From NCBI GenBank assembly GCA_014360825.1, contig JACIWT010000012.1, positions 72 through 64,071 of the forward strand: DNA of 64,000 nucleotides, given 5' to 3'. This document shows positions 22,369 to 36,593 of the stretch, piece by piece. Source of the stretch: Chloroflexota bacterium. GTDB taxonomy: Bacteria; Chloroflexota; Anaerolineae; UBA2200; JACIWT01. Every line of letters starts with the position of its first letter. The first letter of the stretch is position 1. The notes below the pieces were generated by a model. The model did no database searches. It worked only from the letters and a program-made list of their open reading frames with translations, and was not told the origin of the DNA. A program made the position numbers and the translations under genes.

Positions 22369-22608
22369 TACGAAACCGATTTGTGTTAATTTTAGCCCAC
22401 CCTCTATCTCGTGCCAAATGGTTCTGCCCTACCAGGACGCCAGAGCGAAGTCATTTCTTCGGGGTTCGTAGGGACTTAGATTCCTGAGAGGACGCTGCCA
22501 CCTACACGACCACGAAGTTCTATGATTTCTCATGTTACAGAAACCTTTTGCCAGATCTGGCGTCGTTATGATAAGATTGTCATAAGCGAACTGCCTTGGA
22601 GGCTAGAT

Positions 22609-25600
22609 ATGGGTAGCCAAAAGACATCTGCTGAGAGATTGCTAAACTTGCTGGTCATCGCATCTCTGGTTATTACCACAGCGGGGTTCGTGCCCCTTCG
22701 TGTCGCGGCCGGAACGCAAGTAAATCAACCCGCTGCCGATCAAACCATCTCCGCGGTGGCCTCTGCCTCCGCCAGGGCCACATCACTGTCTCCATCCATG
22801 CTGCCAAAATCTCAAGGCGATCTTGCTGTCTTCCCTAGTACACCCGCTCCAACCCCCGCACCGACATCAGAGCCCATGCTCACTCCGCCGCCGGCAGACG
22901 AGGCCTATATCACCCCTGAAGGTGGCGGAGTGTTACAATCGGCGAACGGCCGCATTCGCCTGGAGTTCCCGCCCGGTGCAGTGCGCGAGCCGGCGACCGT
23001 CCGGTACGTCGAAGTCCTGGCCCAGCCGTTCACGCTCTCTACCGACACCCTGCTGAGGTTCAACCTGGAAGTGGTGGGAGGCGCCCAACCCACCGATGCG
23101 CGAGGCCACGCCCTGTTCGATCAGCCCTTGACACTGACCATCAATCTGGAGGGACTGGTGGCGGCGCAGCCCCTGTTGGCGCAGAACAAGCGCCTGGAGT
23201 TCGCCTACGTCTCAGAACGCTACGGCGAGAGGGCCACCTTGGTGGCGGTCCCTCTGACCAGTGTGGATTGGGAACGGGGACAGGTGGTCGTCGTGTTCGA
23301 CCACTTTTCAGAGTGGGAGTTGATGGCTGCTGACCAACTCCCGCCGACCGACTGGATGTTCCCCACCAACCTGGGTGCGGCCGTGGACCCCTTCACCGGC
23401 TCGGCAGCGTACAACTACTCGATCGAAGTGGTGCCGGGCATCCAAGGCCTGCAGCCACAGTTAACCCTCTCCTACAGCAGTCGAACCGTGGACAACCTGC
23501 TGACCAACATCCAAGCCCCGTGGGTCGGTCTGGGCTGGTCGCTGGAGACCGTCGAGGTGGTGCGCAAGATCACTACCCACCGGGGCAGCCAGGGCATGGT
23601 CTACGGTTACGAAAACACATTCACGTTGATCTTCCAGGGGCGCTCGCAGCGCCTGGTGCGCGAGCCAGGCAGCCCGCCGGCAGGCAAACCGGCGGTATAC
23701 CATGCTGAGAGCGAGGATTTCTTGCGCATCGAGCGTTACAACGCCCAGCACGGTGGCCAAAGCCCATCCAACACCTGTGGCGAGTATTGGGTGATCACGG
23801 CCCGCGATGGGACGGTGTACCGCCTGGGCTATAATGCCGACTCCGAGCAGGTGGCCAGCATGCAAGACTACAACCCCAACAACCCACCGGCGGCAGGGTA
23901 TGCCGGGTCGGCCACCAACCGGGTGGCATATCGCTGGCGGCTGGATCGGGTGACGGACACCCACGCTAACTACATGACCATCTCCTACTCTGAGGAGCAG
24001 AAACAAGATCCGGTGGTCACCGGCAACCCCACCTACGACCACGCCAGTTATCTGAATGAGATACTGTACACGGGACACAACCCCGGCTTCTCACCGCCTC
24101 ACAAGGTGCAGTTCGAGCGCGAGGGTCGCACCTTCGACACGAATACACCCGTCTCCTGGCTGGGTTATGAAGGTTCTCCGAACAGTAAACCCTACGCCTT
24201 GTTTGAATCCCAGCGTCTGAAGCGTATCAAGATCTACAAAGACACCACCCTGGTGCGCAAGTACGAACTCGGCTATACCTACATCGAGCATGGCAACCGC
24301 AAGAACACCTTGTTGCAAACCATCACCCAATATGGGTTGAGCGGGTTGTCTCTGCCGACAGTGACTCTGACTTACCAGGGCTATGAGAACCGGAACCCTG
24401 GCGGCGAAGGCGACTGGTTCGTTTACGACCGGCTGATTACGGTTACCAACGGCTATGGCGGGAGTGTCGGGTTCAGTTACGCCTACTTCGGGCATTGCGA
24501 GTTCGGCTGTGGACGCTACTACCGCGTCTCGGAGATGCGCACCCTGAATGGCCAGGGTAACACGGCCAAGGTGCAATACACCTACCAGACCCCAACGTGG
24601 AACAACTTTGCCCCAGACGATTATGACACTTTCTGGGGCCATGACGTGGCGACGGAAACCGTCTTGGCCTATAACCTGACCACGCTTTCCCAAACTATCT
24701 ACGACTTCAACGTGGCTACCATCGAACGGAGGGGGCGCCCCGAGAGCGTCAAGGTAAAAGACAGTAGCGGGGCAGTGAGGCAGACGACAACCTACACTTA
24801 CTACCAGGAGTACACCGTATCACCGCAATCTGACCAGTACTGGCGTTTCGCCGCTTTCGTAGCCCCCAGCGAAGTGGTAGTCTATCCGAACGATGGGTCC
24901 TCGGTGTACAAGAAGACCAAGCACTACTATGAAGCCAGTTCGCAAGGTGGGAAACAGTACGGCAATCTGACCCAACTGGAAGAGTACAGCGGCACCGTCG
25001 CAGTGCGTAAGACGTGGTGGCGCTTTTACCCCGATGCAGATTACTGGATCATCAACAAGCCTGGCTTCACCAACGTCTACACCTGGACGGGCAGCACCTG
25101 GCTGTGGGAGTCCTCGACACAGTATTGCTACGACGATAGTTGGTACTATGCCAACCCCATTGGCTCCACCAACTACGGCGGCAACGGCAGTCACAAGGGC
25201 GAGTTGACCCTGGTGCGCCGCAACACCGGCGAGACCTATTCGCAGGGCGGCCGCACCTATTACAAGATGGTGGACACCGTCTATGATTACGACGTCTATG
25301 GCAACCAGATCAATATCATAGAGTACAACTCCTACGGCAGCCTCTCCGATGGCACACCCCCGCTGGGTGCGGTGGCCAGCCAGAACCCCCGCCCCATTAC
25401 CATCACCTATGAGAGCACCTACCACACTTACCCCAGTCAGGTGACCAATGCCAAAGGCCACACGGCCACTTATATCCATAACGCTGGTTTTGGCACCCTG
25501 ACACATGTAACCGACCCGAACAACGACGAGGTAGACTATGAGTACGACGAATTCGGCCGGCTGAAGAAGGTATGGCGCCCCGGCGACGACAAAGACCTGG

Positions 25601-28377
25601 GCCATGCCGCCACCTCCGAGTACACCTACACCGACAGTTACCCCTTCCGCGTCTATGTGAAACAGCGCGATGACCTGGGTGGGGGCGGTACGGCCACTTA
25701 TTATGAGACCTGGTCCTTCTACAACGGCCTGGGGCAGTTGATCCAGACCCAGAAAGAGGCGGTGGGCGGGATCATTGTGGCCGACACGGCCTACGACTCC
25801 CGTGGGCTGACGGAGAAGATCGGCCTGCCCCGCGCCAGCACCGGGGGCGGCAGTTACAAGACGCCCAATTGGACCGGCGCCACCACCAACCAATACGATT
25901 GCCTGGGCCGGCTTACTCTGGTAACCTATCCCGATGGCCGCACCGTCTCACGCAGTTACACCAACTGGACCACAGCGGTCATTGATGAAAACAGCCACAA
26001 GAAAGAGTTCGAGAACGATGCCCTGGGCCGGCTGATCCGTGTGCGCGAGTATACCGGCACCAACCCGTACACCCTATACGCCACCACCATTTACGCCTAC
26101 AACAGCCTGGATCAGTTGATCCATCTCTGGGATAACGCCAGTAACCACACCGGGATCACCTATAACAAACTGGGGCAAAAGACAGCCATGGGCGACCCCG
26201 ACATGGGCAACTGGGCCTATGCTTACGACCCCATCGGCACGCTGGCCAGCCAGAGCGACGCCAAGGGCCAGACCATCGCCTTCTTCTACGACGAACTGAA
26301 TCGCCTCCTGCGCAAGGAATACCCCGCGGGCACAGTCCTGGCCAGCTTCACTTACGATGACACGACGGGAGGTAACAAGGGCAGGGGCCGGCGGACGGGG
26401 ATGAGTTATAGCGGAGGCGGCTCGGCCTCCTATATCTATGACGGCCGGGGTCGCCTGACCAAAGAGACCGACGTCATCCCGGGCCCGGGAGGCGGCACTT
26501 TCGTCACCCAGTGGACCTACAACGATATGGATCGGGTGCGGACAACGGTGTATCCAGGTGGAAACGGCGGGCAGACTGGAGAGACGGTAACTTTCACCTA
26601 CGGAGCCGATAGTTGGCTGAAGAGCGCGGTTGGCACCAACACTTACGTGGGCGACACCACCTACAACGCGCTGGGGCAAGTGGAACTGAGAAAACTGGGT
26701 AGCGCCGCCACCCCTGTGCTGACCACCGACTACATCTATCGCACAGACAATTTCCGTTTGCAATGGATCAAGACCGGCCAGAGCAGCCCCTTCGAGGGGT
26801 TGCAGAAACTGGAGTACACCTACGATGCGGCGGGGAACGTCCTGACCATCAAAGACTACAACGCCGGCGGCACCCAGACCCAGAGTTTCGTTTACGACGC
26901 GCTGGACCGGGTGACCACGGCTACCGCGAGCGGGGGGACGGGGGGCCTCTACAGCGAGGGGTACACCTACAACCCCATCGGCAACCTGCTGAGCAAAGGC
27001 GGGGTGAACTACACCTATGGCTCCAGCAAGCCCCATGCGGTGACCGCGGCTGGTTCTAACTCCTACGCCTACGACGCCAACGGCAACACGATCACGCGCA
27101 CAGTGGGCAGCGACACCTACGCCCTGACGTACGACGCAGAGAACCGCCTGACGCAGGTGAAGAAGAACGGGGGCGCCATCGCCGCCTTCGTCTACGACGG
27201 CGACGGGGTGCGGGTGAAGGCCATGGTCAACGGCACGACCACCGCCTACATTGGGGACTACTACGAGCAGACGGGGAGCACCATCCGCAAATACTACTAC
27301 GCCAATGGCCAGCGGGTGGCCATGCAGGAGAACAGCACCCTCTACTGGCTCTTGACGGACCACCTGGGCTCCACCGCCATCACCGCCAACTCGAGCGGCA
27401 GCAAGTACGGCGAGTTGCGCTACAGGGCCTATGGCGAGACCCGCTACACCTGGGGCACCACGCCCACCACCTATCGCTTTACCGGCCAGCGGGAAGAGAG
27501 TACAATAGGGCTGTACTTTTACAATGCCAGATGGTATGACCCGGCCTTGGGGCGATTTGTGCAGGCGGATACCCTCGTGCCGGAGCCGGGGAACCCGCAG
27601 GCGCTCAACCGCTACTCGTACGTGCTGAACAATCCGCTGCGGTATACGGATCCCACTGGTCTCTTCTCAGAGGAAGAGATTATGAAGCACCTAGAGGTGG
27701 ATACCTGGGAGGAAGTGCTGGCCTTCTTCAGAGCCGGAGGATTGCTGGCGGGAAGGTGGGGTTGGCTCGCAGTTCTGCGCCAAGCGCAGTTGGGAGATGA
27801 GGTCCAGTTCCTGGAGGGCTATGCTGGCTTCTGGCCTGCGCCGGGACCTGGGGGAAGGGTTGCCTCGCGCGGCATTTTCGTGGAATCGAATGGTTCGCTC
27901 TACATCCGGGGCGCTGAAGGCGGCCTGATAGCGGCAAATGAGGCAGCGAAGGTGGGTAATGCCTATCTGCTGGCCAGGCCGTCGTCGGACTATAGGTTGC
28001 CGATGGTGTTCGGGCCGTACTATGCTGAAAGAATGTACCCGCATCATTACCAACTTGACCCGGGAAGGGTGGATTGGGTTGGGGCTGGTCTTGATGCTGG
28101 AGGAATTGCTGCCGACGCGCTCACCTATGGAGCAGGGGGCAGGCTTGTTAATGTAGCCGAAATCGCTGTAGCTGGCAGACAGATTGGAGATGCTCTCGAT
28201 GTAGTGAGCTTGGTGAGGAGTGGATACCCGTTTGCGAGGGGGACTCTGAGGGGAGGGCTCTCTTACGCTCAAGTCAGAGACTTCTCTCTGGATACAGCCG
28301 CACTTTGGATTCCGTTTGTGCCTGATTTCGTGAGTCTGGTGGCGAATTTCCGTGAGGCTTCCTATCCAGTGCCTTAG
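22609..28377 (+). CDS. Rhs/YD-repeat polymorphic toxin with C-terminal toxin domain CT1
   Basis: About 1920 aa. Signal/TM N-terminus, dozens of YD repeats and the Rhs core ending at PxxxxDPxGL (NPLRYTDPTGL, D at 27649). A unique ~238-aa C-terminal domain follows. Start set at the ATG with a GGAGG RBS (track ORF begins at 22522). Confidence 0.9.
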   Translation: MGSQKTSAERLLNLLVIASLVITTAGFVPLRVAAGTQVNQPAADQTISAVASASARATSLSPSMLPKSQGDLAVFPSTPAPTPAPTSEPMLTPPPADEAYITPEGGGVLQSANGRIRLEFPPGAVREPATVRYVEVLAQPFTLSTDTLLRFNLEVVGGAQPTDARGHALFDQPLTLTINLEGLVAAQPLLAQNKRLEFAYVSERYGERATLVAVPLTSVDWERGQVVVVFDHFSEWELMAADQLPPTDWMFPTNLGAAVDPFTGSAAYNYSIEVVPGIQGLQPQLTLSYSSRTVDNLLTNIQAPWVGLGWSLETVEVVRKITTHRGSQGMVYGYENTFTLIFQGRSQRLVREPGSPPAGKPAVYHAESEDFLRIERYNAQHGGQSPSNTCGEYWVITARDGTVYRLGYNADSEQVASMQDYNPNNPPAAGYAGSATNRVAYRWRLDRVTDTHANYMTISYSEEQKQDPVVTGNPTYDHASYLNEILYTGHNPGFSPPHKVQFEREGRTFDTNTPVSWLGYEGSPNSKPYALFESQRLKRIKIYKDTTLVRKYELGYTYIEHGNRKNTLLQTITQYGLSGLSLPTVTLTYQGYENRNPGGEGDWFVYDRLITVTNGYGGSVGFSYAYFGHCEFGCGRYYRVSEMRTLNGQGNTAKVQYTYQTPTWNNFAPDDYDTFWGHDVATETVLAYNLTTLSQTIYDFNVATIERRGRPESVKVKDSSGAVRQTTTYTYYQEYTVSPQSDQYWRFAAFVAPSEVVVYPNDGSSVYKKTKHYYEASSQGGKQYGNLTQLEEYSGTVAVRKTWWRFYPDADYWIINKPGFTNVYTWTGSTWLWESSTQYCYDDSWYYANPIGSTNYGGNGSHKGELTLVRRNTGETYSQGGRTYYKMVDTVYDYDVYGNQINIIEYNSYGSLSDGTPPLGAVASQNPRPITITYESTYHTYPSQVTNAKGHTATYIHNAGFGTLTHVTDPNNDEVDYEYDEFGRLKKVWRPGDDKDLGHAATSEYTYTDSYPFRVYVKQRDDLGGGGTATYYETWSFYNGLGQLIQTQKEAVGGIIVADTAYDSRGLTEKIGLPRASTGGGSYKTPNWTGATTNQYDCLGRLTLVTYPDGRTVSRSYTNWTTAVIDENSHKKEFENDALGRLIRVREYTGTNPYTLYATTIYAYNSLDQLIHLWDNASNHTGITYNKLGQKTAMGDPDMGNWAYAYDPIGTLASQSDAKGQTIAFFYDELNRLLRKEYPAGTVLASFTYDDTTGGNKGRGRRTGMSYSGGGSASYIYDGRGRLTKETDVIPGPGGGTFVTQWTYNDMDRVRTTVYPGGNGGQTGETVTFTYGADSWLKSAVGTNTYVGDTTYNALGQVELRKLGSAATPVLTTDYIYRTDNFRLQWIKTGQSSPFEGLQKLEYTYDAAGNVLTIKDYNAGGTQTQSFVYDALDRVTTATASGGTGGLYSEGYTYNPIGNLLSKGGVNYTYGSSKPHAVTAAGSNSYAYDANGNTITRTVGSDTYALTYDAENRLTQVKKNGGAIAAFVYDGDGVRVKAMVNGTTTAYIGDYYEQTGSTIRKYYYANGQRVAMQENSTLYWLLTDHLGSTAITANSSGSKYGELRYRAYGETRYTWGTTPTTYRFTGQREESTIGLYFYNARWYDPALGRFVQADTLVPEPGNPQALNRYSYVLNNPLRYTDPTGLFSEEEIMKHLEVDTWEEVLAFFRAGGLLAGRWGWLAVLRQAQLGDEVQFLEGYAGFWPAPGPGGRVASRGIFVESNGSLYIRGAEGGLIAANEAAKVGNAYLLARPSSDYRLPMVFGPYYAERMYPHHYQLDPGRVDWVGAGLDAGGIAADALTYGAGGRLVNVAEIAVAGRQIGDALDVVSLVRSGYPFARGTLRGGLSYAQVRDFSLDTAALWIPFVPDFVSLVANFREASYPVP

Positions 28378-28403: not shown

Positions 28404-28685
28404 ATGACCGATGATTGGGCTTGCATCTTCGCTGTAGAGGTGTTGATGAGTTTGGCTCTTATCTTGTGGAGCTTGCGAATCTGGCTTAAACCTAGTTCCT
28501 TGAGTCCAGACTCCTTCATGTACCGCTATTTCTATGTTAGGTGGCGTGCTTGGCGGGGAGCGAGTGGGGTGGAGTCTGAGAAACTCACCGAGAGGCAAAT
28601 AAGATACTTCGGCATAGGAGGGGTGATTGTGGGGATTGTCGGGATTGCGGTGGTGATAATGGGATTAGCGCTGGGTAGACCGTGA
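28404..28685 (+). CDS. Putative immunity protein for CT1 (small 2-TM membrane protein)
   Basis: 93-aa ORF 26 nt downstream of the rhs stop. Two hydrophobic helices. Position is typical of rhs immunity genes. Confidence 0.55.
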   Translation: MTDDWACIFAVEVLMSLALILWSLRIWLKPSSLSPDSFMYRYFYVRWRAWRGASGVESEKLTERQIRYFGIGGVIVGIVGIAVVIMGLALGRP

Positions 28686-28951: not shown

Positions 28952-29971
28952 GTGGCCATGCAGCAGAACAGCACCCTGTACTGGCTGCTGACCGACCACC
29001 TGGGCTCCACCGCCATCACTGCTAACTCGAGCGGTAGCAAGTCCGGCGAACTGCGCTACAGGGCCTATGGGGAGACCCGCTACACCTGGGGCACCACGCC
29101 CACCACCTTCCGTTTCACCGGCCAGCGGGAAGAGAATACAATTGGGCTGTACTTTTACAATGCCAGATGGTACGACCCGGCGCTGGGGCGGTTCGTGCAG
29201 GCGGACAGCATCGTGCCTGAGCCAGGGAACCCGCAGAGCCTGAACCGGTATTCGTACGTGCTCAACAACCCGCTGCGGTATGTGGACCCGAGTGGGCACT
29301 ATACCTTTGAAGAAGATCCAGATGACCCCTGGATCTACCGAGAATGGGATCCACGCGTCCGCTCTCGGTACTGGTACACCCACCCCGCAGTGCAGTTAAG
29401 GACTGTGAGCGATGCTGAAGTCCTTGCCGCAATAACATCCCCCCTCTGGGGGGCCGCCGGGGCGGTGCTTGTGGACGCGGCGCTGACGGAGGTGGCTCTA
29501 CCTGCGGCGAAGACGGTCGCGGGCCAGGCAGTGGCCCGCCTTGCACCGTTGGCACAACAGGTGTGGGAGAGAGGCAAAGAGGCTATTCGTCTGGCACGAC
29601 CAGATGGAGTACGATGGGGACCACATACGGGCGCCGGCCCTCTTGGTGAGGAGATCGCCAAACTGTTCCGTGGGGGCAGCTACACTGAACTCAAGCTTAA
29701 TGTAGAAACAACGCTGTACCGCGTCTGGGGTGGGAGTTCTCCAGAATTAGGTCCCTGGTGGAGCCGAACCCCTCCGGCAGGTCCTCTCCAGGCAAAGATT
29801 GACCTGGCTTTGCCGTCCGGCAACACCGCGCTGAATGTAGTAAAAATCCAAGTGCCCGCAGGAACAACGATCTATGAAGGGTTTGCGGAGCGGCTTGGAG
29901 GACTCTTGGGCGGTGGAAACCAAGTATTCATTCCGTGGGTTGATCCTAGTTGGGTGGTGAGAACATGGTAG
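28952..29971 (+). CDS. Orphan rhs C-terminal cassette 2 (core end + toxin domain CT2), possibly restart-translated
   Basis: Same frame as the 28795-28912 remnant. Encodes the Rhs core end through DPSG, then a unique ~230-aa C-terminal domain. The nearest ATG after the stop is 28952. Confidence 0.65.
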   Translation: MAMQQNSTLYWLLTDHLGSTAITANSSGSKSGELRYRAYGETRYTWGTTPTTFRFTGQREENTIGLYFYNARWYDPALGRFVQADSIVPEPGNPQSLNRYSYVLNNPLRYVDPSGHYTFEEDPDDPWIYREWDPRVRSRYWYTHPAVQLRTVSDAEVLAAITSPLWGAAGAVLVDAALTEVALPAAKTVAGQAVARLAPLAQQVWERGKEAIRLARPDGVRWGPHTGAGPLGEEIAKLFRGGSYTELKLNVETTLYRVWGGSSPELGPWWSRTPPAGPLQAKIDLALPSGNTALNVVKIQVPAGTTIYEGFAERLGGLLGGGNQVFIPWVDPSWVVRTW

Positions 29972-30324
29972 ATAAAAAAGTCATCAAGATGATTTCACAT
30001 TGGTTTCAGATCGCTAGAGGTTGTAGCCTGTTACTGCCTGACGGGTGGTTTGGCGGACGTCCTCATGAAGGCCAACACACACTCACATACTTGGAGGTCC
30101 GTCCTCACAAGCTACTCATGGAGCTAGATGAGCAGCTTCTCCTGATATTTACAGAAATTGCCACGGTTCGCATTGAGAATTCGGATCTAGTTCTGACAGA
30201 CTTCCAGCAATTCGTTTTCGATTGGCAGGGGTATGGAGACCTTTTGCCACACGTGGCAGTGTACAGACAAGGTACAGTAAAACTTGTTCCGCCGATAGGC
30301 ACGACTATTAAGGACACCATATAG
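29965..30324 (+). CDS. Putative cytoplasmic immunity protein for CT2
   Basis: 120-aa ORF. Its start overlaps the CT2 stop (ATGGTAG). No signal peptide. Confidence 0.5.
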   Translation: MVDKKVIKMISHWFQIARGCSLLLPDGWFGGRPHEGQHTLTYLEVRPHKLLMELDEQLLLIFTEIATVRIENSDLVLTDFQQFVFDWQGYGDLLPHVAVYRQGTVKLVPPIGTTIKDTI

Positions 30325-30343: not shown

Positions 30344-30562
30344 TTGGCCCCGGACGATATCCTTTCAGTTCGACTGGACAAAATCTTCCACCAGCAAGAG
30401 GTCACCGCCCGGCTGTTCCACGAACTACCTACTTATCCATCCCGGGCATTCTCGCCTCAAGTAATCTGGAACGCCTACACCCGGGTGTATGGCAGACAAC
30501 TGGGTCGCTGGGACTGGCTGGAGGCCATTTGGCCCTATTTTGAAAGATGGGGGGTGCGATGA
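30344..30562 (+). CDS. Hypothetical small protein
   Basis: 72-aa ORF just upstream of and overlapping the 305-aa Cys protein. Weak evidence. Confidence 0.25.
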   Translation: MAPDDILSVRLDKIFHQQEVTARLFHELPTYPSRAFSPQVIWNAYTRVYGRQLGRWDWLEAIWPYFERWGVR

Positions 30563-31464
30563 AACGCATCACCCACATCGGGATCTGGTGGGACCCTCGT
30601 AAGCCCCCTGAGGAATTGGAGAAAGACAAAACACGCATTGCAGAGATCCTTAGGCGGATGGGGATGGGATCTCTGTTTCATCCAGAGCAGCATTTCTATG
30701 ATTTTCACCTGGAGGCAGGGTCGAAGGCTCTGGAGACTTTGGTGGAGGAACTTCAGACAACGCCTCATTTAGCAGACTCACATATTTGGGTTGAGACTCG
30801 CTATACTCGCCAAGAACTGGAATCTGCCGCCATGCTTATCTGGGGGCCAACCAATCAGGCTATTGAAGATGACTACTACGATTTTTCTGCCGAGGGCGAG
30901 GAGCACAGAGATTTGTACAAATACTGTCCGGCTTGCGGGGCACCGATCGGACAAATCCGTGATTTCATCGCCCACAAGGCCCTGATGCGAGGGAAAGAGG
31001 TCTCGTTGACCTACTCGAATCAAGTGATTCTGTCCGAACGGGTAGGGCACCTCCTGCAAGAACATAGCTTGACTGGTTTCGAACTGCGGCCGGTGCGCCA
31101 CTACAAGAAGCCCTACAAGGGAGAACCCACCCTATATCAGCTTAAGGTCACAAACATGCTGCCCCCGATGGCCTCGCCCCCCACCGAGTTTGAGCGAATT
31201 CAGCACTGTGAGGTTTGCGGTACCACGACCCGGTATCTCAAGCACACGCACTTTTGGGGGAAGATTCAATACTACGAGGATACAGACATTTATTATCCCA
31301 AGGGCGTGCTGGAGGTAGTCAAGGACTTTAACTACACCGCCGAGAAGTTCGAAGAGCTACGGGTTGCACATCCATATGTGATCATTACCCAACGAGTGTA
31401 TCGCCTGTTGCATGAGCACAAGGTGAAGAACTGGGCAGCGGTGCCGGTGTATCTGGTGGATTAG
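30559..31464 (+). CDS. Hypothetical protein with two CxxC motifs, embedded in the rhs array
   Basis: About 300-aa ORF. CPACG and CEVCG motifs lie ~75 aa apart. No recognisable catalytic motif. Confidence 0.55.
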   Translation: MKRITHIGIWWDPRKPPEELEKDKTRIAEILRRMGMGSLFHPEQHFYDFHLEAGSKALETLVEELQTTPHLADSHIWVETRYTRQELESAAMLIWGPTNQAIEDDYYDFSAEGEEHRDLYKYCPACGAPIGQIRDFIAHKALMRGKEVSLTYSNQVILSERVGHLLQEHSLTGFELRPVRHYKKPYKGEPTLYQLKVTNMLPPMASPPTEFERIQHCEVCGTTTRYLKHTHFWGKIQYYEDTDIYYPKGVLEVVKDFNYTAEKFEELRVAHPYVIITQRVYRLLHEHKVKNWAAVPVYLVD

Positions 31465-31576: not shown

Positions 31577-32856
31577 GCGTAGCCGAAGCCTACGACGCCA
31601 ATGGCAACACAATCACGCGCACGGTGGGCAGCGACACCTACGTCTCCTCGTACGACGTCGAGAACCGCCTGACGCAAGTGAAGAAGAACGGGGCCGTCAT
31701 CGCCACCTTCGTCTACGACGGCGACGGGGTGCGGGTGAAGGCCATGGTCAACGGCACGACCACCGCCTACGTCGGGGACTACTACGAGCAGACGGGGAGC
31801 ACCATCCGCAAATACTACTACGCCAATGGCCAGCGGGTGGCCATGCAGCAGAACAGCACCCTGTACTGGCTGCTGACCGACCACCTGGGCTCCACCGCCA
31901 TCACTGCTAACTCGAGCGGTAGCAAGTCCGGCGAACTGCGCTACAGGGCCTATGGGGAGACCCGCTACACCTGGGGCACCACGCCCACCACCTTCCGTTT
32001 CACCGGCCAGCGGGAAGAGAATACAATAGGGCTGTACTTTTACCATGCCCGATGGTATGACCCGGCCTTGGGGCGATTTGTGCAGGCGGATACCATTGTG
32101 CCGGAGCCGGGGAACCCGCAGAGCCTGAACCGGTACTCGTACGTGCTCAACAACCCGGTGCGGTATACCGACCCGAGTGGGCACTGGGTGCCTGTGGATG
32201 AGGACGAATACGGAAGACCAACAAGAAGGCCTTATGTGCCGCCAGTAGTTATATATATCCACAGGGAAATGGTGACCAATGTGCAGGGTAGGATTATGAA
32301 GTTGCTCCAGTCTTTGAACCAGGCGTGCTACAGTTGTGCCTGGGACGATGTGCCTGACTGGATGCCTGGGGTCGGAGAGGGGCGAAGGAACGCAGCTATT
32401 GCTGATACAGCCGCAAAGACAGAAGCATTTGCGATCTTCGGCTGGATGGTACGCCAGGAAGGTCCTTGGGACCCCAAGCCCCACATTGGTCGGGATTACG
32501 GCACCTCCCAACGAATTGGGGACGCCTGGTACTACTACGATATCTGGGGGAACATGATGTTTGGCTACCTGGGAACGGCAGCCGGTTTCTCCGAATCCGA
32601 ACTGCTGGAGGGCGCAGGCCTGGAGCAGATCGGCTCCAGTATGGGATACGCCATACGCGAGCGGAAATCCAGTTACCTGCCAAGGCGAGAGCCAGGAGTT
32701 AGTGGACTGCGTGCCTGGGATGATCCTGTTGATCAAGTCACAACCCAGATTGGTATCAACTTGTGGAATGCCTACAGTCTCAACGTCACCCCGATGGACA
32801 TCATCCAGGCAATTAAGGCAGAACCGAGAATCCCCACGAAAGATGAGCCGTGGTGA
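31577..32856 (+). CDS. Orphan rhs C-terminal cassette 3 (core end + toxin domain CT3)
   Basis: Homology to the main Rhs core begins around 31577 (YDANGNTITRTVGSDTY...) and runs through DPSG. A unique ~225-aa CT follows, containing GPWDPKP and AGFSESELLEGAGLEQ. First in-frame ATG is at 31624. Confidence 0.7.
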
Positions 32857-32890
32857 TGAATCAGCAGAGACCGCGAAATGGGAGGTAGAG

Positions 32891-33490
32891 ATGAAAAAGC
32901 GTACCCTTGGCTGCGTTGGTTTGCTATTCGCTTGCGTGGCTCTGATGTTCTTCTACATCGTGATATATGGCAGGCCAAAGACGAGAGCACAGCCGGTGAA
33001 TATGTACGATCTTATGGTAGACGTGTCAGCCTTTCCCCAGGGATGGGATGTGGAGTTTGGACCCTCTCACCCTCCGCCAAGGAAACACCTCAGAGGGGAG
33101 AGTGAGGGCTTGTATGTGCAGTTTGCGAGGGGCTTTGACCATGGCGCAATGCACATAGTTTGCAGATATACAAACGATCTAACAGCAACGGTTTCCTTTT
33201 ACGTGGACAATGAGTTCCCCAATCTGAGAGAGGCTATGATAACCCCGTGGGCAGTGCCTGAAGGATGGTCATACGAGAGTCCGGTTGCTGACCGCTTCAA
33301 GTTCGCCTGTGCTGAGCTTGAAATATTAGGGCGATTCCGGAGTTGCTCAGCGGTCGCTCAATATGGTGAGTACATCTCTGTCTTCAGAAGCAAAGTATCT
33401 CCTGAGTACATGACGCTACAAGACTTGGAACGCATTCTCAAGGCCATTGACGAGCGCATGGCTCAGCACCTGAAAGGCAATAGCCGGTAA
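32891..33490 (+). CDS. Secreted/lipoprotein-like immunity-family protein (paralog 1)
   Basis: 199 aa. GGAGGT RBS, N-terminal signal or anchor (LGCVGLLFACVALMFFYIVI) and the conserved C-terminus YESPVADRFKFACAEL...MTLQDLERILKAIDERMAQHL shared with 34769-35374 and 35721-36350. Confidence 0.65.
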   Translation: MKKRTLGCVGLLFACVALMFFYIVIYGRPKTRAQPVNMYDLMVDVSAFPQGWDVEFGPSHPPPRKHLRGESEGLYVQFARGFDHGAMHIVCRYTNDLTATVSFYVDNEFPNLREAMITPWAVPEGWSYESPVADRFKFACAELEILGRFRSCSAVAQYGEYISVFRSKVSPEYMTLQDLERILKAIDERMAQHLKGNSR

Positions 33491-33525
33491 GCATGAACTT
33501 ATCAAGCAAGGGCAAGGAGTGTCCT

Positions 33526-33924
33526 ATGCGGAGGAAGCTTCTCTTGATCGGCTGGATCATCGGCATTCTATTCCCCTTTGGGTGGCTCACCTCGTATTCT
33601 GACACCTATCGCCAAGTGTTCGATATGATCTTCAGTCCTCTGTGGGTTCACATCCTGATGCACACTCTGCTCTACCTGGTGTTGGCCTATCTCCTGACCT
33701 GCTTACTGTTGAGGGGCCGTTCTGCACAGATGAGCCTATACCACCTCGGCCTGTTGCTTTTAGTGATTTTCATCATCGCCCTGCTGCAAGAAGGTTTTCA
33801 ACTGCTCTACCAAGGGAGGCTGCCGGGTGCCGATGAGTGGCTGGACATGGGTGTTGATTTGGTCGGGGGTTCATTGGGGCTTCTGATGTTTTGTGTACGA
33901 GTGAGAAGGATATCTCAGCGGTAG
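33526..33924 (+). CDS. Small polytopic membrane protein (VanZ-like topology)
   Basis: About 132 aa with four hydrophobic helices. AAGGAG RBS 6 nt upstream of the ATG. Confidence 0.45.
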   Translation: MRRKLLLIGWIIGILFPFGWLTSYSDTYRQVFDMIFSPLWVHILMHTLLYLVLAYLLTCLLLRGRSAQMSLYHLGLLLLVIFIIALLQEGFQLLYQGRLPGADEWLDMGVDLVGGSLGLLMFCVRVRRISQR

Positions 33925-34094
33925 GTCGAGAACTGCTAATAGGCGTTGTCTGCGGCGCACGATGAATGTTCAAGTAGACGAGTCCGATAGTGATGTTGTG
34001 CCAACTTGCCCCTGACCGGCCTCAGTCGGGGTCTGGTGTTTGATGTGCTCTTTGACAATCTGAGAAGTATCCTGCATCTATACCTTCCGCTAAG

Positions 34095-34763
34095 GTGACC
34101 ACAGCGGTGCTGTGGGTGACCAAGTACTACTACGCCAACGGCCGGCGGGTGGCCATGCGCACGCCCTCCGGCGTCAGCTACATCCATGCTGACCACCCTT
34201 CGGCTTCGCTCAGGGCAGGCCTGGGGAGCACGGCAGTCATCAGCGGGGCGCAGAGTGGCAACATCAGGTACTACCCGTACGGGACCACACGCAGCGGCGC
34301 TGTGGCCACCGCCTACAAGTTCACCGGGCAACGGTTGGATGACAGCACAGGGCTGTACTTCTATGGAGCCCGCTACTACGACGCGGCCCTGGGGCGGTTC
34401 ATCCAGGCAGATACCATCGTGCCGCAGCCGGGGAACCCCCAGGCGCTGAACCGGTACTCGTATGTGCTGAATAATCCGCTGCGGTATGTGGACCCTACTG
34501 GTCGTCGGTATGAGCAGAGCGCCGGGTACGTATTCGATCCCAATTACTGGCGGGACCTCCTACTCTGGTTCGTTCGCGAGGCCAACCGCAATGCCCGGCT
34601 CCCGGAAGTGCAAATCATGCGTCTCAACAATGTAGTGGGCAACTTAGGCCCACCTGGTGCTGGCAGCAAAGCTCTGGCTGGCGGTATGTTCTATCAGTTG
34701 GTCCGGGACAGCGGCCCATGGGATTTCAAGGACGAGACTGAAGATAAAAGGAAAGGAGGCTGA
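34095..34763 (+). CDS. Orphan rhs C-terminal cassette 4 (divergent core end + short CT)
   Basis: Homology starts at KYYYANGRRVAM and continues to DPTG. The CT is short and contains GPWDFKD, related to the CT3 N-part. Confidence 0.6.
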   Translation: MTTAVLWVTKYYYANGRRVAMRTPSGVSYIHADHPSASLRAGLGSTAVISGAQSGNIRYYPYGTTRSGAVATAYKFTGQRLDDSTGLYFYGARYYDAALGRFIQADTIVPQPGNPQALNRYSYVLNNPLRYVDPTGRRYEQSAGYVFDPNYWRDLLLWFVREANRNARLPEVQIMRLNNVVGNLGPPGAGSKALAGGMFYQLVRDSGPWDFKDETEDKRKGG

Positions 34764-34768
34764 AGAAG

Positions 34769-35374
34769 ATGCAAAGAGCCTTGCTGATAGGGACATTAGT
34801 AATGCTGTGCGCATTCGCAGGGGGGTGTGATGTTTTTACTACCCCTCCGCCCCGAGATTGCGCAATAAGCAGTCTAGTTATAGATGAAACAGTTTTCCCC
34901 CCTGGCACAGTGGCTGATCTCCTGGTATCGCCCTTGCCAGGAGGACCGATCCCCAAAACGGCTTTTGAATCCGCTGGGCGTAGCTTCCACTACTCACGCA
35001 CCTTTGGGATCACTACACACAACGTTTATCGCTACAAATCAGCAAATAGGGCAGCCGACGAGTTCGCGCGACGTAGAAAACTTGAATTTTCGGAGGGAGA
35101 GAACAGAGGACCTTGGAAGAAGCCAAGTGATCTTACTTATGAAAGCCCCATCGCTGACCAATTCTGTGTGGCTTGTGGCATGGATGGTAGCTTTTACACT
35201 TGCGTGATGGTTGCCCAATATGAAGAGTATTTCGTGCGGCTAAATGTCCACATGTCTCCTGACACCATGACCTTCCAGGATCTGGAGCGCGTGCTCTGGG
35301 CTGTTGACGAGCGCATGGCCTACTGCCTGAACAAGCCGCTGCCAACGGCACCAGCCGGAACCGCCACGCCATAG
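34769..35374 (+). CDS. Secreted immunity-family protein (paralog 2)
   Basis: 201 aa with an N-terminal signal peptide. C-terminus YESPIADQFCVACG...MTFQDLERVLWAVDERMAYCL ends in LPTAPAGTATP. Confidence 0.65.
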   Translation: MQRALLIGTLVMLCAFAGGCDVFTTPPPRDCAISSLVIDETVFPPGTVADLLVSPLPGGPIPKTAFESAGRSFHYSRTFGITTHNVYRYKSANRAADEFARRRKLEFSEGENRGPWKKPSDLTYESPIADQFCVACGMDGSFYTCVMVAQYEEYFVRLNVHMSPDTMTFQDLERVLWAVDERMAYCLNKPLPTAPAGTATP

Positions 35375-35395
35375 CCATAAGGCCAGGTTTGCGCG
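35335..35395 (+). repeat. Direct repeat copy 1 (3' end of immunity paralog through the CAGGAGAAC junction)
   Basis: About 60 nt near-identical to 36311-36371: CTGCCAACGGCACCAGCYGGAACCGCCACGCCATAGCCATAAGGCCAGGYTTGCGYGCAGGAGAAC. Confidence 0.75.
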
Positions 35396-35724
35396 CAGGA
35401 GAACATCGCTCCTTTGACACGTGGTCGAACATCCACTATGGTTATGTTGGCATAGCAGCGGGCTTCTCGGCTGATGCTCTGCTTGATGGCGCAGGGCTGG
35501 AACAGTTCGGCTCGGATATTCTCGCTTACCGAAAATGGCCTCAGGCTGTTCCGGGAGTCAGCGGGGTGCGACGATTTGATCAGCTATATGATCAGGCAGC
35601 GATCCAGGTCGGCGTTGATCTGTGGAAGACCTATAGCCTGGCAGTAAAACCGGAGGATATCGTCTGGGCGATACAAACTGTGCCTGGTCTCGATAGACGG
35701 CCGGCACAAGGAGGGCATCTATGA
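35389..35724 (+). CDS. Orphan toxin fragment homologous to the C-terminal half of CT3
   Basis: SFDTWSNIHYGYVGIAAGFSADALLDGAGLEQFG aligns with CT3 YDIWGNMMFGYLGTAAGFSESELLEGAGLEQIG. It begins right at a CAGGAGAAC recombination junction. Confidence 0.55.
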   Translation: MRAGEHRSFDTWSNIHYGYVGIAAGFSADALLDGAGLEQFGSDILAYRKWPQAVPGVSGVRRFDQLYDQAAIQVGVDLWKTYSLAVKPEDIVWAIQTVPGLDRRPAQGGHL

Positions 35725-36350
35725 AGAAGATAACTTTGGGCTGCTTGGTTTTGCTGCTTTTGGTCTGTGGGCTGCCGGTAACCCTTTGGGCCCTGCCTTC
35801 ACTACTGCCACCTACCGTAAGAACACCCCCAGTGGATATGCGTGACTTGATGGTAGATGCGACTCCCTTTCCCCCAGACTGGCGTGTGGTGCGCGGGCCA
35901 GAGCCACAACCCGAAAGATCGAGTTTGGATTGGGGAGATGAGAATCTATCTGTGGGCTTACAGCCCACTGGTGATAGAGGTTTTGCGTCTCACTACGTTT
36001 TCAAGTTCCGCAACGAAGCTGCGGCTATGTACGGTCACTTTTGGATTCTAAGACAGGGGGTATTGTTTCCTTCCCACCGGGAATCGAAGATCCCCGCTGA
36101 ATGGACCTACCGCAGTCCGATTGCCGATGATTGGCGCTTTGCCTGTGTAGATTATGGGCAAGGCAAGCGAATGTGGTGTGCTGCTATGGCACGGTATGAT
36201 GAGTATATCTCCGTACTTAATACCACCGTGTCCTCTGAGTATATGACCCTAAAAGACCTGGAGGGTATTTTGAGGGCCATTGATGAACGCATGGCTCAAT
36301 GCCTGGGCAAGCTGCTGCCAACGGCACCAGCTGGAACCGCCACGCCATAG
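35721..36350 (+). CDS. Secreted immunity-family protein (paralog 3)
   Basis: 209 aa with signal peptide MKKITLGCLVLLLLVCGLPV. C-terminus YRSPIADDWRFACVDYG...MTLKDLEGILRAIDERMAQCL also ends in LPTAPAGTATP. Confidence 0.65.
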   Translation: MKKITLGCLVLLLLVCGLPVTLWALPSLLPPTVRTPPVDMRDLMVDATPFPPDWRVVRGPEPQPERSSLDWGDENLSVGLQPTGDRGFASHYVFKFRNEAAAMYGHFWILRQGVLFPSHRESKIPAEWTYRSPIADDWRFACVDYGQGKRMWCAAMARYDEYISVLNTTVSSEYMTLKDLEGILRAIDERMAQCLGKLLPTAPAGTATP

Positions 36351-36371
36351 CCATAAGGCCAGGCTTGCGTG
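36311..36371 (+). repeat. Direct repeat copy 2
   Basis: See copy 1. Followed by a truncated rhs core fragment. Confidence 0.75.
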
Positions 36372-36593
36372 CAGGAGAACACCACGCCCACTACATATCG
36401 CTTTACCGGCCAGCGGGAAGAGAATACAATTGGGCTGTACTTTTACAATGCCAGATGGTATGACCCGGCCTTGGGGCGATTTGTGCAGGCGGATACGATT
36501 GTGCCTGAGCCGGGCAACCCGCAGGCGCTGAACCGATGTATATGTTTTGAATATCACTGCACAGGACCCCTAACTATATCCCGAGTGCCTTAA
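36369..36593 (+). pseudogene. Truncated rhs core fragment (TTPTTYRFTGQREENTIGLYFYNARWYDPALGRFVQADTIVPEPGNPQALNR-), the island's terminal remnant
   Basis: Homology ends before the DPxGL motif. Reading then runs into unrelated sequence (CICFEYHCTGPLTISRVP). Confidence 0.65.

Follow-up and report, generated by a model that had tools for sequence, protein, structure and literature searches.

Putative exported immunity proteins accompany Ntox44 toxins in a Chloroflexota Rhs locus and suggest a target in the cell envelope

We analysed a 64,000-nucleotide stretch (hereafter the window) of contig JACIWT010000012.1 from the Chloroflexota bacterium assembly GCA_014360825.1, of which positions 31,577 to 36,350 are the subject of this report. 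This region makes up the distal part of an Rhs polymorphic-toxin locus whose delivery depends on Sec, and carries a toxin domain, termed CT3, together with three paralogous genes, A, B and C, whose products are predicted to be exported. We identify CT3 as a member of the toxin family Ntox44 and A, B and C as members of a large exported family of putative immunity proteins, new in that it lies outside Pfam and NCBIfam, which is linked to Ntox44 in Chloroflexota. Over all four delivery routes sampled (Sec-Rhs, type VI secretion system (T6SS), Bacteroidota T6SS and type VII secretion system (T7SS)), the partner of Ntox44 was exported or membrane-embedded, and partners of this kind are what envelope-targeting toxins usually have. 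We therefore consider it probable that the physiological substrate of Ntox44 lies in the cell envelope and that outward-facing, anchored immunity proteins block the toxin. The partner pattern disagrees with the annotation as RNase that thousands of database entries carry, and with a recent experimental report as other papers summarise it. Once this conflict is settled, a toxin family present in several pathogens would have an assigned target.

The open reading frame (ORF) at 31624-32856 consists of the end of an Rhs core followed by the 223-aa CT3 domain, and carries GPWDPK and AGFSESELLEGAGLEQ. CT3 scores 66.4 bits against the Pfam family Ntox44 ('bacterial toxin 44', PF15607; cut-off 24). 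It displays the motifs WDPK (DxK), WGNMMFG (GNxxxG), DDPVD (DxxxD, DDxxD) and GAGLEQ, and the DxK, GNxxxG, DxxxD and GAGLEQ columns are invariant or nearly so among 18-20 homologs from several phyla. The DxK, GNxxxG and DxxxD motifs, together with an all-alpha fold, define Ntox44 in Zhang et al. 2012 (PMC3482391); the AlphaFold2 model of CT3 (predicted local distance difference test, pLDDT, 89.4) is helical except for one small hairpin. The initial annotation of this DNA had found neither the toxin nor its neighbours recognisable. For CT3 this is superseded by the Pfam match; scans of Pfam and NCBIfam returned no counterpart of the family of the immunity proteins.

The invariant D, K, N and E/Q residues of Ntox44 and its DDxxD motif suggest catalysis. 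In CT3 the maximal 19-residue Kyte-Doolittle hydropathy is 0.94 and there is no hydrophobic helix, which argues for a soluble domain and not a pore former. Judged from these residues and this profile, Ntox44 is probably a soluble, metal-dependent enzyme. The DDxxD motif appears to be common to Ntox44 and prenyl-diphosphate synthases, which we retain as a lead; the weak Foldseek matches of CT3 to these synthases (TM-scores 0.13-0.24) are not evidence of kinship. A relationship to lysozymes or lytic transglycosylases, to which the resemblance of 'GLEQ' to 'GLMQ' might have pointed, was rejected, the motif order being different and a fold match being absent. Searches of PDB chain sequences with the toxin, as single sequence and as profile, gave no meaningful match, and a tblastn search of phage genomes with Ntox44 gave no match.

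Each of the genes A, B and C stands directly 3' of an Ntox44-type toxin sequence. All three ORFs are found at the stated coordinates on the + strand. Their kinship, already apparent to the initial annotation, was confirmed by pairwise BLASTP (A/B, E 3e-24 and 36% identity; A/C, 1e-40 and 44%; B/C, 4e-28 and 36%), and the C-terminal block which it had quoted (Y-x-SP-[IV]-AD, FAC...C, MT[LF][QK]DLE and DERMA) is present. The N-terminal signal or anchor that it had ascribed to each of them was also recovered, in the form of a basic n-region followed by a hydrophobic stretch with maximal 19-residue Kyte-Doolittle values of 2.62, 2.04 and 2.56 for A, B and C respectively; B carries in addition a lipobox-like FAGGC. 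Protein A is identical to the NCBI entry hypothetical protein H5T64_09220. A ribosome-binding site, GGGAGG, precedes the ATG of A, another, GGAGG, serves B, and the start of C overlaps the stop of the toxin remnant at 35389-35724.

The AlphaFold2 model of A (pLDDT 91.6) comprises a helix over residues 4-27 and then an alpha/beta sandwich, in which the cysteines C140 and C152 lie on adjacent antiparallel strands and could possibly form a disulfide. The best Foldseek matches of this model in the PDB are extracytoplasmic proteins: 4tmd (an Rv0999 ortholog, E 3.6e-4), the PknH sensor domain, TiME, PsbP and the periplasmic immunity protein Tsi3. Over 4tmd, 4esq, 7cu8/7cu9, 1v2b and 4n7s, the matches have probabilities of 0.75-1.0, TM-scores of 0.28-0.47 and identities of 8-15%, which weakly points to a PsbP/PknH-sensor-like fold for the modelled domain. 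The periplasmic T6SS immunity proteins Tsi3 and Tai and the proteins of the PsbP/PknH-sensor/TiME fold are likewise exported or lipid-anchored alpha/beta sandwiches, but at such scores the likeness is not a demonstrated family relationship. A single-sequence search of PDB chains with the immunity protein gave no meaningful match.

The family to which A, B and C belong is large. A word-indexed search retrieved 69 clusters at 90% identity, all of about 200 aa, and a profile search of 1.84 billion representatives retrieved 1170 clusters (50% identity) at E <= 1e-3, 640 of them at <= 1e-10. An N-terminal hydrophobic segment is present in 97% of 180 full-length members, which carry ahead of it a mean of 2.4 lysine or arginine and 0.3 aspartate or glutamate residues, the orientation expected for an N-in, C-out topology. 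A lipobox-like motif was detected in 67% of the same members and at least two later cysteines in 99%; C140 is invariant and C152 nearly invariant in the family. Members are found directly 3' of Rhs-Ntox44 genes in further contigs (L003/L004, L006-L008 and L009, the last with two pairs) and in the same position in the GTDB loci L011, L013, L023, L031, L033, L037 and L041. The family-bearing loci are mostly from Chloroflexota (Anaerolineae, Thermoflexus, Caldilineaceae).

Across 13 distinct pairs, toxin identity rises and falls with immunity identity (Spearman rho 0.83; shared ancestry inflates the P-value), and this co-variation fits co-inherited cognate pairs. Because of their strict position 3' of the toxin, this co-variation and their retention beside decayed toxins, the assignment of A, B and C as immunity proteins is supported. 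They might instead be unrelated secreted or lipoprotein genes, for instance with accessory or cell-surface functions, as sensors and lipoproteins of other function can have a PsbP/PknH-like fold too. To this we give hardly any credence: the position immediately 3' of Ntox44 recurs in many independent contigs, the proteins co-vary with the toxin, they persist beside degraded toxin genes, and their starts are coupled to toxin stops.

The gene following A encodes a small protein which scores 23.6 bits against NCBIfam vanZ_1 (cut-off 20) but remains below the cut-off of Pfam VanZ (20.9 bits, cut-off 30.1). A VanZ-like gene lies directly after the immunity gene also in L006/L007/L008 and in L033 (L006 5714-6082; L033 2499-2921), with about 70% identity, and in L033 the VanZ-like protein is kept despite a much greater divergence of the toxin and immunity genes. 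It is possibly a third gene of the cassette, and may either provide additional protection or mark a cassette boundary that is conserved.

The topology of the Ntox44 partner was then compared across phyla. The survey covered 80 Ntox44 loci from GTDB species genomes, in which the gene directly 3' of the toxin was examined, with size-matched ORFs of the same loci as controls. A strongly hydrophobic N-terminal segment is encoded by 88-93% of the genes 3' of Ntox44 as opposed to 19-24% of the 288 control ORFs, and the exceptions that were inspected are mostly ORF mis-calls or toxin fragments. The downstream proteins of the GTDB loci form three clusters. Besides the family present in the window, these are a Pseudomonas type of about 130-140 aa, with an N-terminal anchor, encoded after PAAR-Ntox44 genes, and a lipoprotein type of about 125 aa (lipoboxes LLSGC, LLAGC and similar), which occurs in Acidobacteriota, Burkholderiales, Desulfobacterota, Polyangia and Gammaproteobacteria and is often encoded inside T6SS clusters. 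The pattern holds also on an Enterobacter asburiae plasmid T6SS, on Photobacterium damselae pPHDD1 and in Treponema succinifaciens. Two Yersinia pseudotuberculosis PAAR-Ntox44 loci encode downstream proteins with an N-terminal membrane anchor, and a locus with a Bacteroidota Hcp-Ntox44 fusion follows the same pattern. In Streptomyces, the Ntox44 protein has a long helical N-terminal region, taken to be of T7SS type, and is accompanied by an 84-aa multi-pass membrane protein. In every lineage sampled (Pseudomonas, Yersinia, Enterobacter, Acidobacteriota, Polyangia, Bacteroidota, Treponema and Streptomyces) the downstream partner is N-terminally anchored, a lipoprotein or a multi-pass membrane protein, and these partners belong to at least five unrelated families. 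Profile-profile comparison found the partner families to be unrelated, save for a weak signal between the Pseudomonas and lipoprotein types, and scans of seven kinds of downstream protein against Pfam and NCBIfam matched no family.

A metagenomic protein from termite gut, P0162 (L100 334-1656), is a fusion of Ntox44 to a C-terminal Peptidase_M15_4 domain, a peptidoglycan peptidase. Its gene, a single example on a 1.9-kb contig, is followed by that of an anchored partner of enterobacterial type. Among other observations from the surveyed loci, an Acidobacteriota T6SS cluster (L015 332-961, 975-5037) carries a stand-alone 221-aa Ntox44 protein and a lipoprotein partner directly after tssF-tssG, with the gene of an AvrRpt2-like papain-fold protease (Peptidase_C70) upstream. 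In a Pseudomonas locus (L059 2891-3253), PAAR-Ntox44 is preceded directly by the gene of a DUF6124 protein, perhaps an adaptor or chaperone.

The immunity protein of a polymorphic toxin normally resides in the compartment where the toxin has its target. Tae/Tai, Tse3/Tsi3 and TelC/TipC are extracytoplasmic examples of this rule, and Tsi6, WapI and the colicin Im proteins cytoplasmic ones. Since the Ntox44 partners are exported or membrane-embedded, it follows from this rule that Ntox44 is neutralised, and most likely acts, outside the cytoplasm; by analogy with these systems, the extension of an extracytoplasmic target to the whole Ntox44 family appears well supported. The immunity domain would face outward from the cytoplasmic membrane, where it would capture and block incoming Ntox44 at the outer face of that membrane. 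The substrate could then be a phosphodiester or pyrophosphate-linked wall precursor or a lipid, rather than cytoplasmic RNA, and B and C could have been kept as orphan immunity genes against the toxin variants of neighbours. That soluble Ntox44 is fused once to Peptidase_M15_4 supports a target in the envelope.

We put forward more tentatively, as a conjecture somewhat short of probable, that Ntox44 is an enzyme of unsolved fold which hits a universal envelope substrate from outside and is not a cytoplasmic RNase, and which would thus be a functional analogue of colicin M or TelC. With the same reserve, its substrate might be, for example, a lipid-linked wall precursor, and many unrelated exported immunity families might neutralise it. 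Ntox44 occurs in Yersinia, Klebsiella, Enterobacter, Pseudomonas, Bacteroidota, Streptomyces and Chloroflexota, and in corals by horizontal transfer. The coral homologs, acquired from bacteria, carry secretion signals (PMC8162421), a further point in favour of an envelope target. The invariant DDxxD motif and the VanZ-like gene present in four loci are weak leads towards a lipid-linked precursor. VanZ proteins lower susceptibility to lipoglycopeptides that bind lipid II.

Several points weigh against an envelope enzyme, and the site of action is contested and not settled. Signals and anchors were assigned by heuristics that use hydropathy, charge and lipoboxes, and the surveyed loci are phylogenetically non-independent within each family. 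As to the enzyme class, Foldseek comparison of the CT3 model with PDB and BFVD gave no significant match (best E 0.46 and 0.43 respectively). In the literature, Ntox44 stands among predicted nucleases, with no immunity family named (Zhang et al. 2012, PMC3482391), it is listed among characterised toxin domains with reference to Ma et al. 2017 (PMC9635880), and the 'RNase' label is repeated across many later papers. The Yersinia pseudotuberculosis PAAR-Ntox44 protein TseR, of T6SS-3, is reported to be a divalent-cation-dependent RNase that prefers single strands and to be toxic to both bacteria and HeLa cells (Wang et al. 2025, Cell Rep 44:116074, as cited in PMC13577199 and two further papers). 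The initial annotation had proposed that exported immunity implies a toxin acting outside the cytoplasm, and that a match of CT3 to a known nuclease bound to the cytoplasm would speak against this. The cross-phylum partner survey favours the proposal; the annotation of Ntox44 as a predicted RNase and the report on TseR speak against it, so that a nuclease match of that kind has in part been found.

If Ntox44 were an RNase acting in the cytoplasm, the exported immunity protein would have to capture the toxin at the outer face of the cytoplasmic membrane before entry. The RNase annotation and the report on TseR favour this explanation, and the invariant acidic residues would fit a metal-dependent nuclease. 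Against it, export or membrane embedding is common to at least five unrelated partner families, no segment for translocation or membrane insertion can be recognised in the toxin, and a peptidoglycan peptidase domain is joined to Ntox44 in one member. To our knowledge, moreover, polymorphic nucleases acting in the cytoplasm pair with cytoplasmic immunity proteins (WapI, Tsi6, colicin Im), which we count against a cytoplasmic RNase, and we regard this explanation as unlikely. Still less credible is a direct attack of Ntox44 on the membrane, by pore formation or disruption, with the anchored immunity protein shielding the membrane. The all-alpha fold would be compatible with such an activity, as would the membrane-bound immunity proteins, of which the Streptomyces one is multi-pass; against it, the hydropathy maximum of 0.94 compares with about 1.6 for membrane insertion, on which ground a pore-forming CT3 was rejected, and the invariant residues (D, K, N, E/Q, D, D) are polar or charged, as in an active site. 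To return to an envelope target as the preferred explanation, it might be reconciled with the activity of TseR if Ntox44 were a metal-dependent phosphodiesterase or pyrophosphatase whose RNase activity in vitro is promiscuous and whose real substrate is in the envelope, although this is speculation.

Comparison with known systems shows which features of the locus are shared. TseR and other Ntox44 toxins have in common with CT3 the toxin domain, the DxK, GNxxxG and DxxxD motifs and an immunity gene directly downstream. Delivery differs, the toxin here belonging to a Sec-exported SpvB-Rhs protein and TseR to PAAR and the T6SS, and the immunity family here is unrelated in sequence; the RNase activity reported for TseR implies a cytoplasmic target and is mismatched with the immunity topology predicted here. 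The working model is provided by TelC-TipC of Streptococcus intermedius, in which an LXG toxin, a lipid II phosphatase with an aspartate-rich metal site, is countered by a membrane-anchored extracellular immunity protein; the present system would likewise combine an extracytoplasmic toxin with outward-facing anchored immunity. No sequence or fold similarity of TelC to CT3 was detected, and TelC is absent among the 50 best PDB matches listed, none of which has E < 0.4. WapA-WapI of Bacillus subtilis likewise relies on Sec-dependent delivery of an Rhs-type protein in a bacterium without T6SS. The WapA toxins are tRNases, and the WapI proteins that give immunity to them are cytoplasmic, whereas the immunity proteins here are exported. 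Finally, the orphan arrays of enterobacterial Rhs and contact-dependent inhibition (CDI) loci also consist of a full-length gene followed by 5'-truncated modules of C-terminal toxin (CT) and immunity genes with core homology, in which toxin remnants have decayed and immunity genes were kept; the present array differs by its Chloroflexota host, the absence of T6SS genes nearby and the export of its immunity proteins.

By its layout, the locus is an ordinary Rhs orphan toxin/immunity array with a known toxin domain. The product of the parent gene (22522-28377) has a hydrophobic signal or anchor at its N-terminus, followed by an SpvB/TcB-like domain (SpvB, Pfam E 2.6e-9), a long YD-repeat shell and a C-terminal toxin, CT1. 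The gene is surrounded by housekeeping genes (holB-like, PSP1, RNase Y), and T6SS or T7SS genes were not seen near it. The last 200-600 nt of its rhs core recur in four further downstream copies, five in all, with 74-96% identity (at about 28.8-29.3, 31.6-32.2, 34.1-34.5 and 36.4-36.6 kb), of which the last three fall within the region described here. This repetition of the core end downstream identifies an Rhs locus with trailing orphan rhs-CT/immunity cassettes, and the repeats could serve as a substrate for recombination. The ORFs at 31624 and 34095 are orphans which retain only the last 135-190 residues of the core, the complete YD shell being confined to the parent gene. Both bear the Rhs core signature (TIGR03696, E 7.6e-23 and 2.7e-24) and PxxxxDPxG[LH]-type motifs (NPVRYTDPSGH and NPLRYVDPTGR); the core end at 31624-32184, 92-96% identical in DNA to the main rhs gene, terminates in the cleavage-type motif NPVRYTDPSGH.

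Of the three copies of the toxin, a single one is complete. Its cassette (31624-33490) comprises the core end, the 223-aa Ntox44 toxin and the 199-aa immunity protein A, and perhaps extends to 33924 with inclusion of the VanZ-like gene, while in the two other cassettes the toxins have decayed to fragments and the immunity genes B and C are intact. These fragments, reported as such in the initial annotation, are genuine. The 34095-34763 ORF aligns by hhalign with the Ntox44 profile over CT3 residues 20-101 (93% probability, E 2.4e-7) and ends about 10 codons past its GPWDFK motif. The 35389-35724 ORF carries AGFSADALLDGAGLEQ and matches our own profile at positions 115-218, but has neither an Rhs core nor a WDxK motif. 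Judged from these truncations, neither ORF encodes an active toxin. One part corresponds to positions 20-101 of CT3 and the other to the stretch from about 117 to the end, with some 15 residues missing between them; the two may derive from one gene split by insertion of gene B with a small deletion, or from two independent truncations. A 77-nt repeat (35330-35406 and 36306-36382) takes in the final 12 codons (…LPTAPAGTATP) of immunity genes B and C, their stop codon and the next 32 nt on the 3' side. The repeat leads into an Rhs core fragment after C and into the middle of an Ntox44 domain after B. Since the two copies are 93% identical and the remainder of these genes only about 70%, this stretch is probably a shared recombination junction or scar.

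Table 1. Features of the Rhs-Ntox44 locus, with positions numbered within the window.
Feature	Coordinates	Strand	Evidence
Full-length Rhs/YD-repeat protein, parent gene of the locus	22522..28377	+	1951 aa; ORF list
Orphan rhs fragment, Rhs core end	31624..32184	+	TIGR03696 Rhs_assc_core E 7.6e-23, residues 107-187; direct repeats D1-D4
CT3 toxin domain, Ntox44, 223 aa	32185..32856	+	Pfam PF15607 E 3.2e-18; AlphaFold2
Putative immunity paralog A, 199 aa, N-terminal anchor or signal and alpha/beta domain	32891..33490	+	BLASTP, AlphaFold2, hydropathy
VanZ-like small multi-pass membrane protein	33493..33924	+	NCBIfam vanZ_1
Orphan rhs core end and N-terminal part of second Ntox44-type toxin	34095..34763	+	TIGR03696 E 2.7e-24; hhalign
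Putative immunity paralog B, 201 aa, lipoprotein-type signal (…LCAFAGGC)	34769..35374	+	BLASTP, hydropathy
77-nt repeat, probable junction	35330..35406, 93% identical to 36306-36382	+	repeat family D5
C-terminal part of Ntox44 toxin, remnant	35389..35724	+	Pfam Ntox44 E 2.6e-14, 53.9 bits, model positions 43-102
Putative immunity paralog C, 209 aa, N-terminal signal or anchor	35721..36350	+	BLASTP, hydropathy
Short Rhs-core fragment, end of array	36369..36593	+	ORF list; D1 repeat copy at 36388-36585

Upstream of the region described here, CT1 (27601-28377), the C-terminal domain of the full-length Rhs protein, is rich in glycine and alanine and has no Pfam match. In the 93-aa product of the ORF that follows it (28404-28685) the C-terminal helix is very hydrophobic (IGGVIVGIVGIAVVIMGLA, hydropathy 2.67), and the two may be a membrane-acting toxin and its membrane immunity protein. 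A further orphan cassette (28952-29971) consists of an Rhs core end and a 226-aa domain, CT2, without a Pfam match, and the ORF after it (29950-30324, 124 aa) has no signal sequence and presumably encodes a cytoplasmic immunity protein. The 305-aa product of the ORF at 30547-31464 gave weak zinc-ribbon matches.

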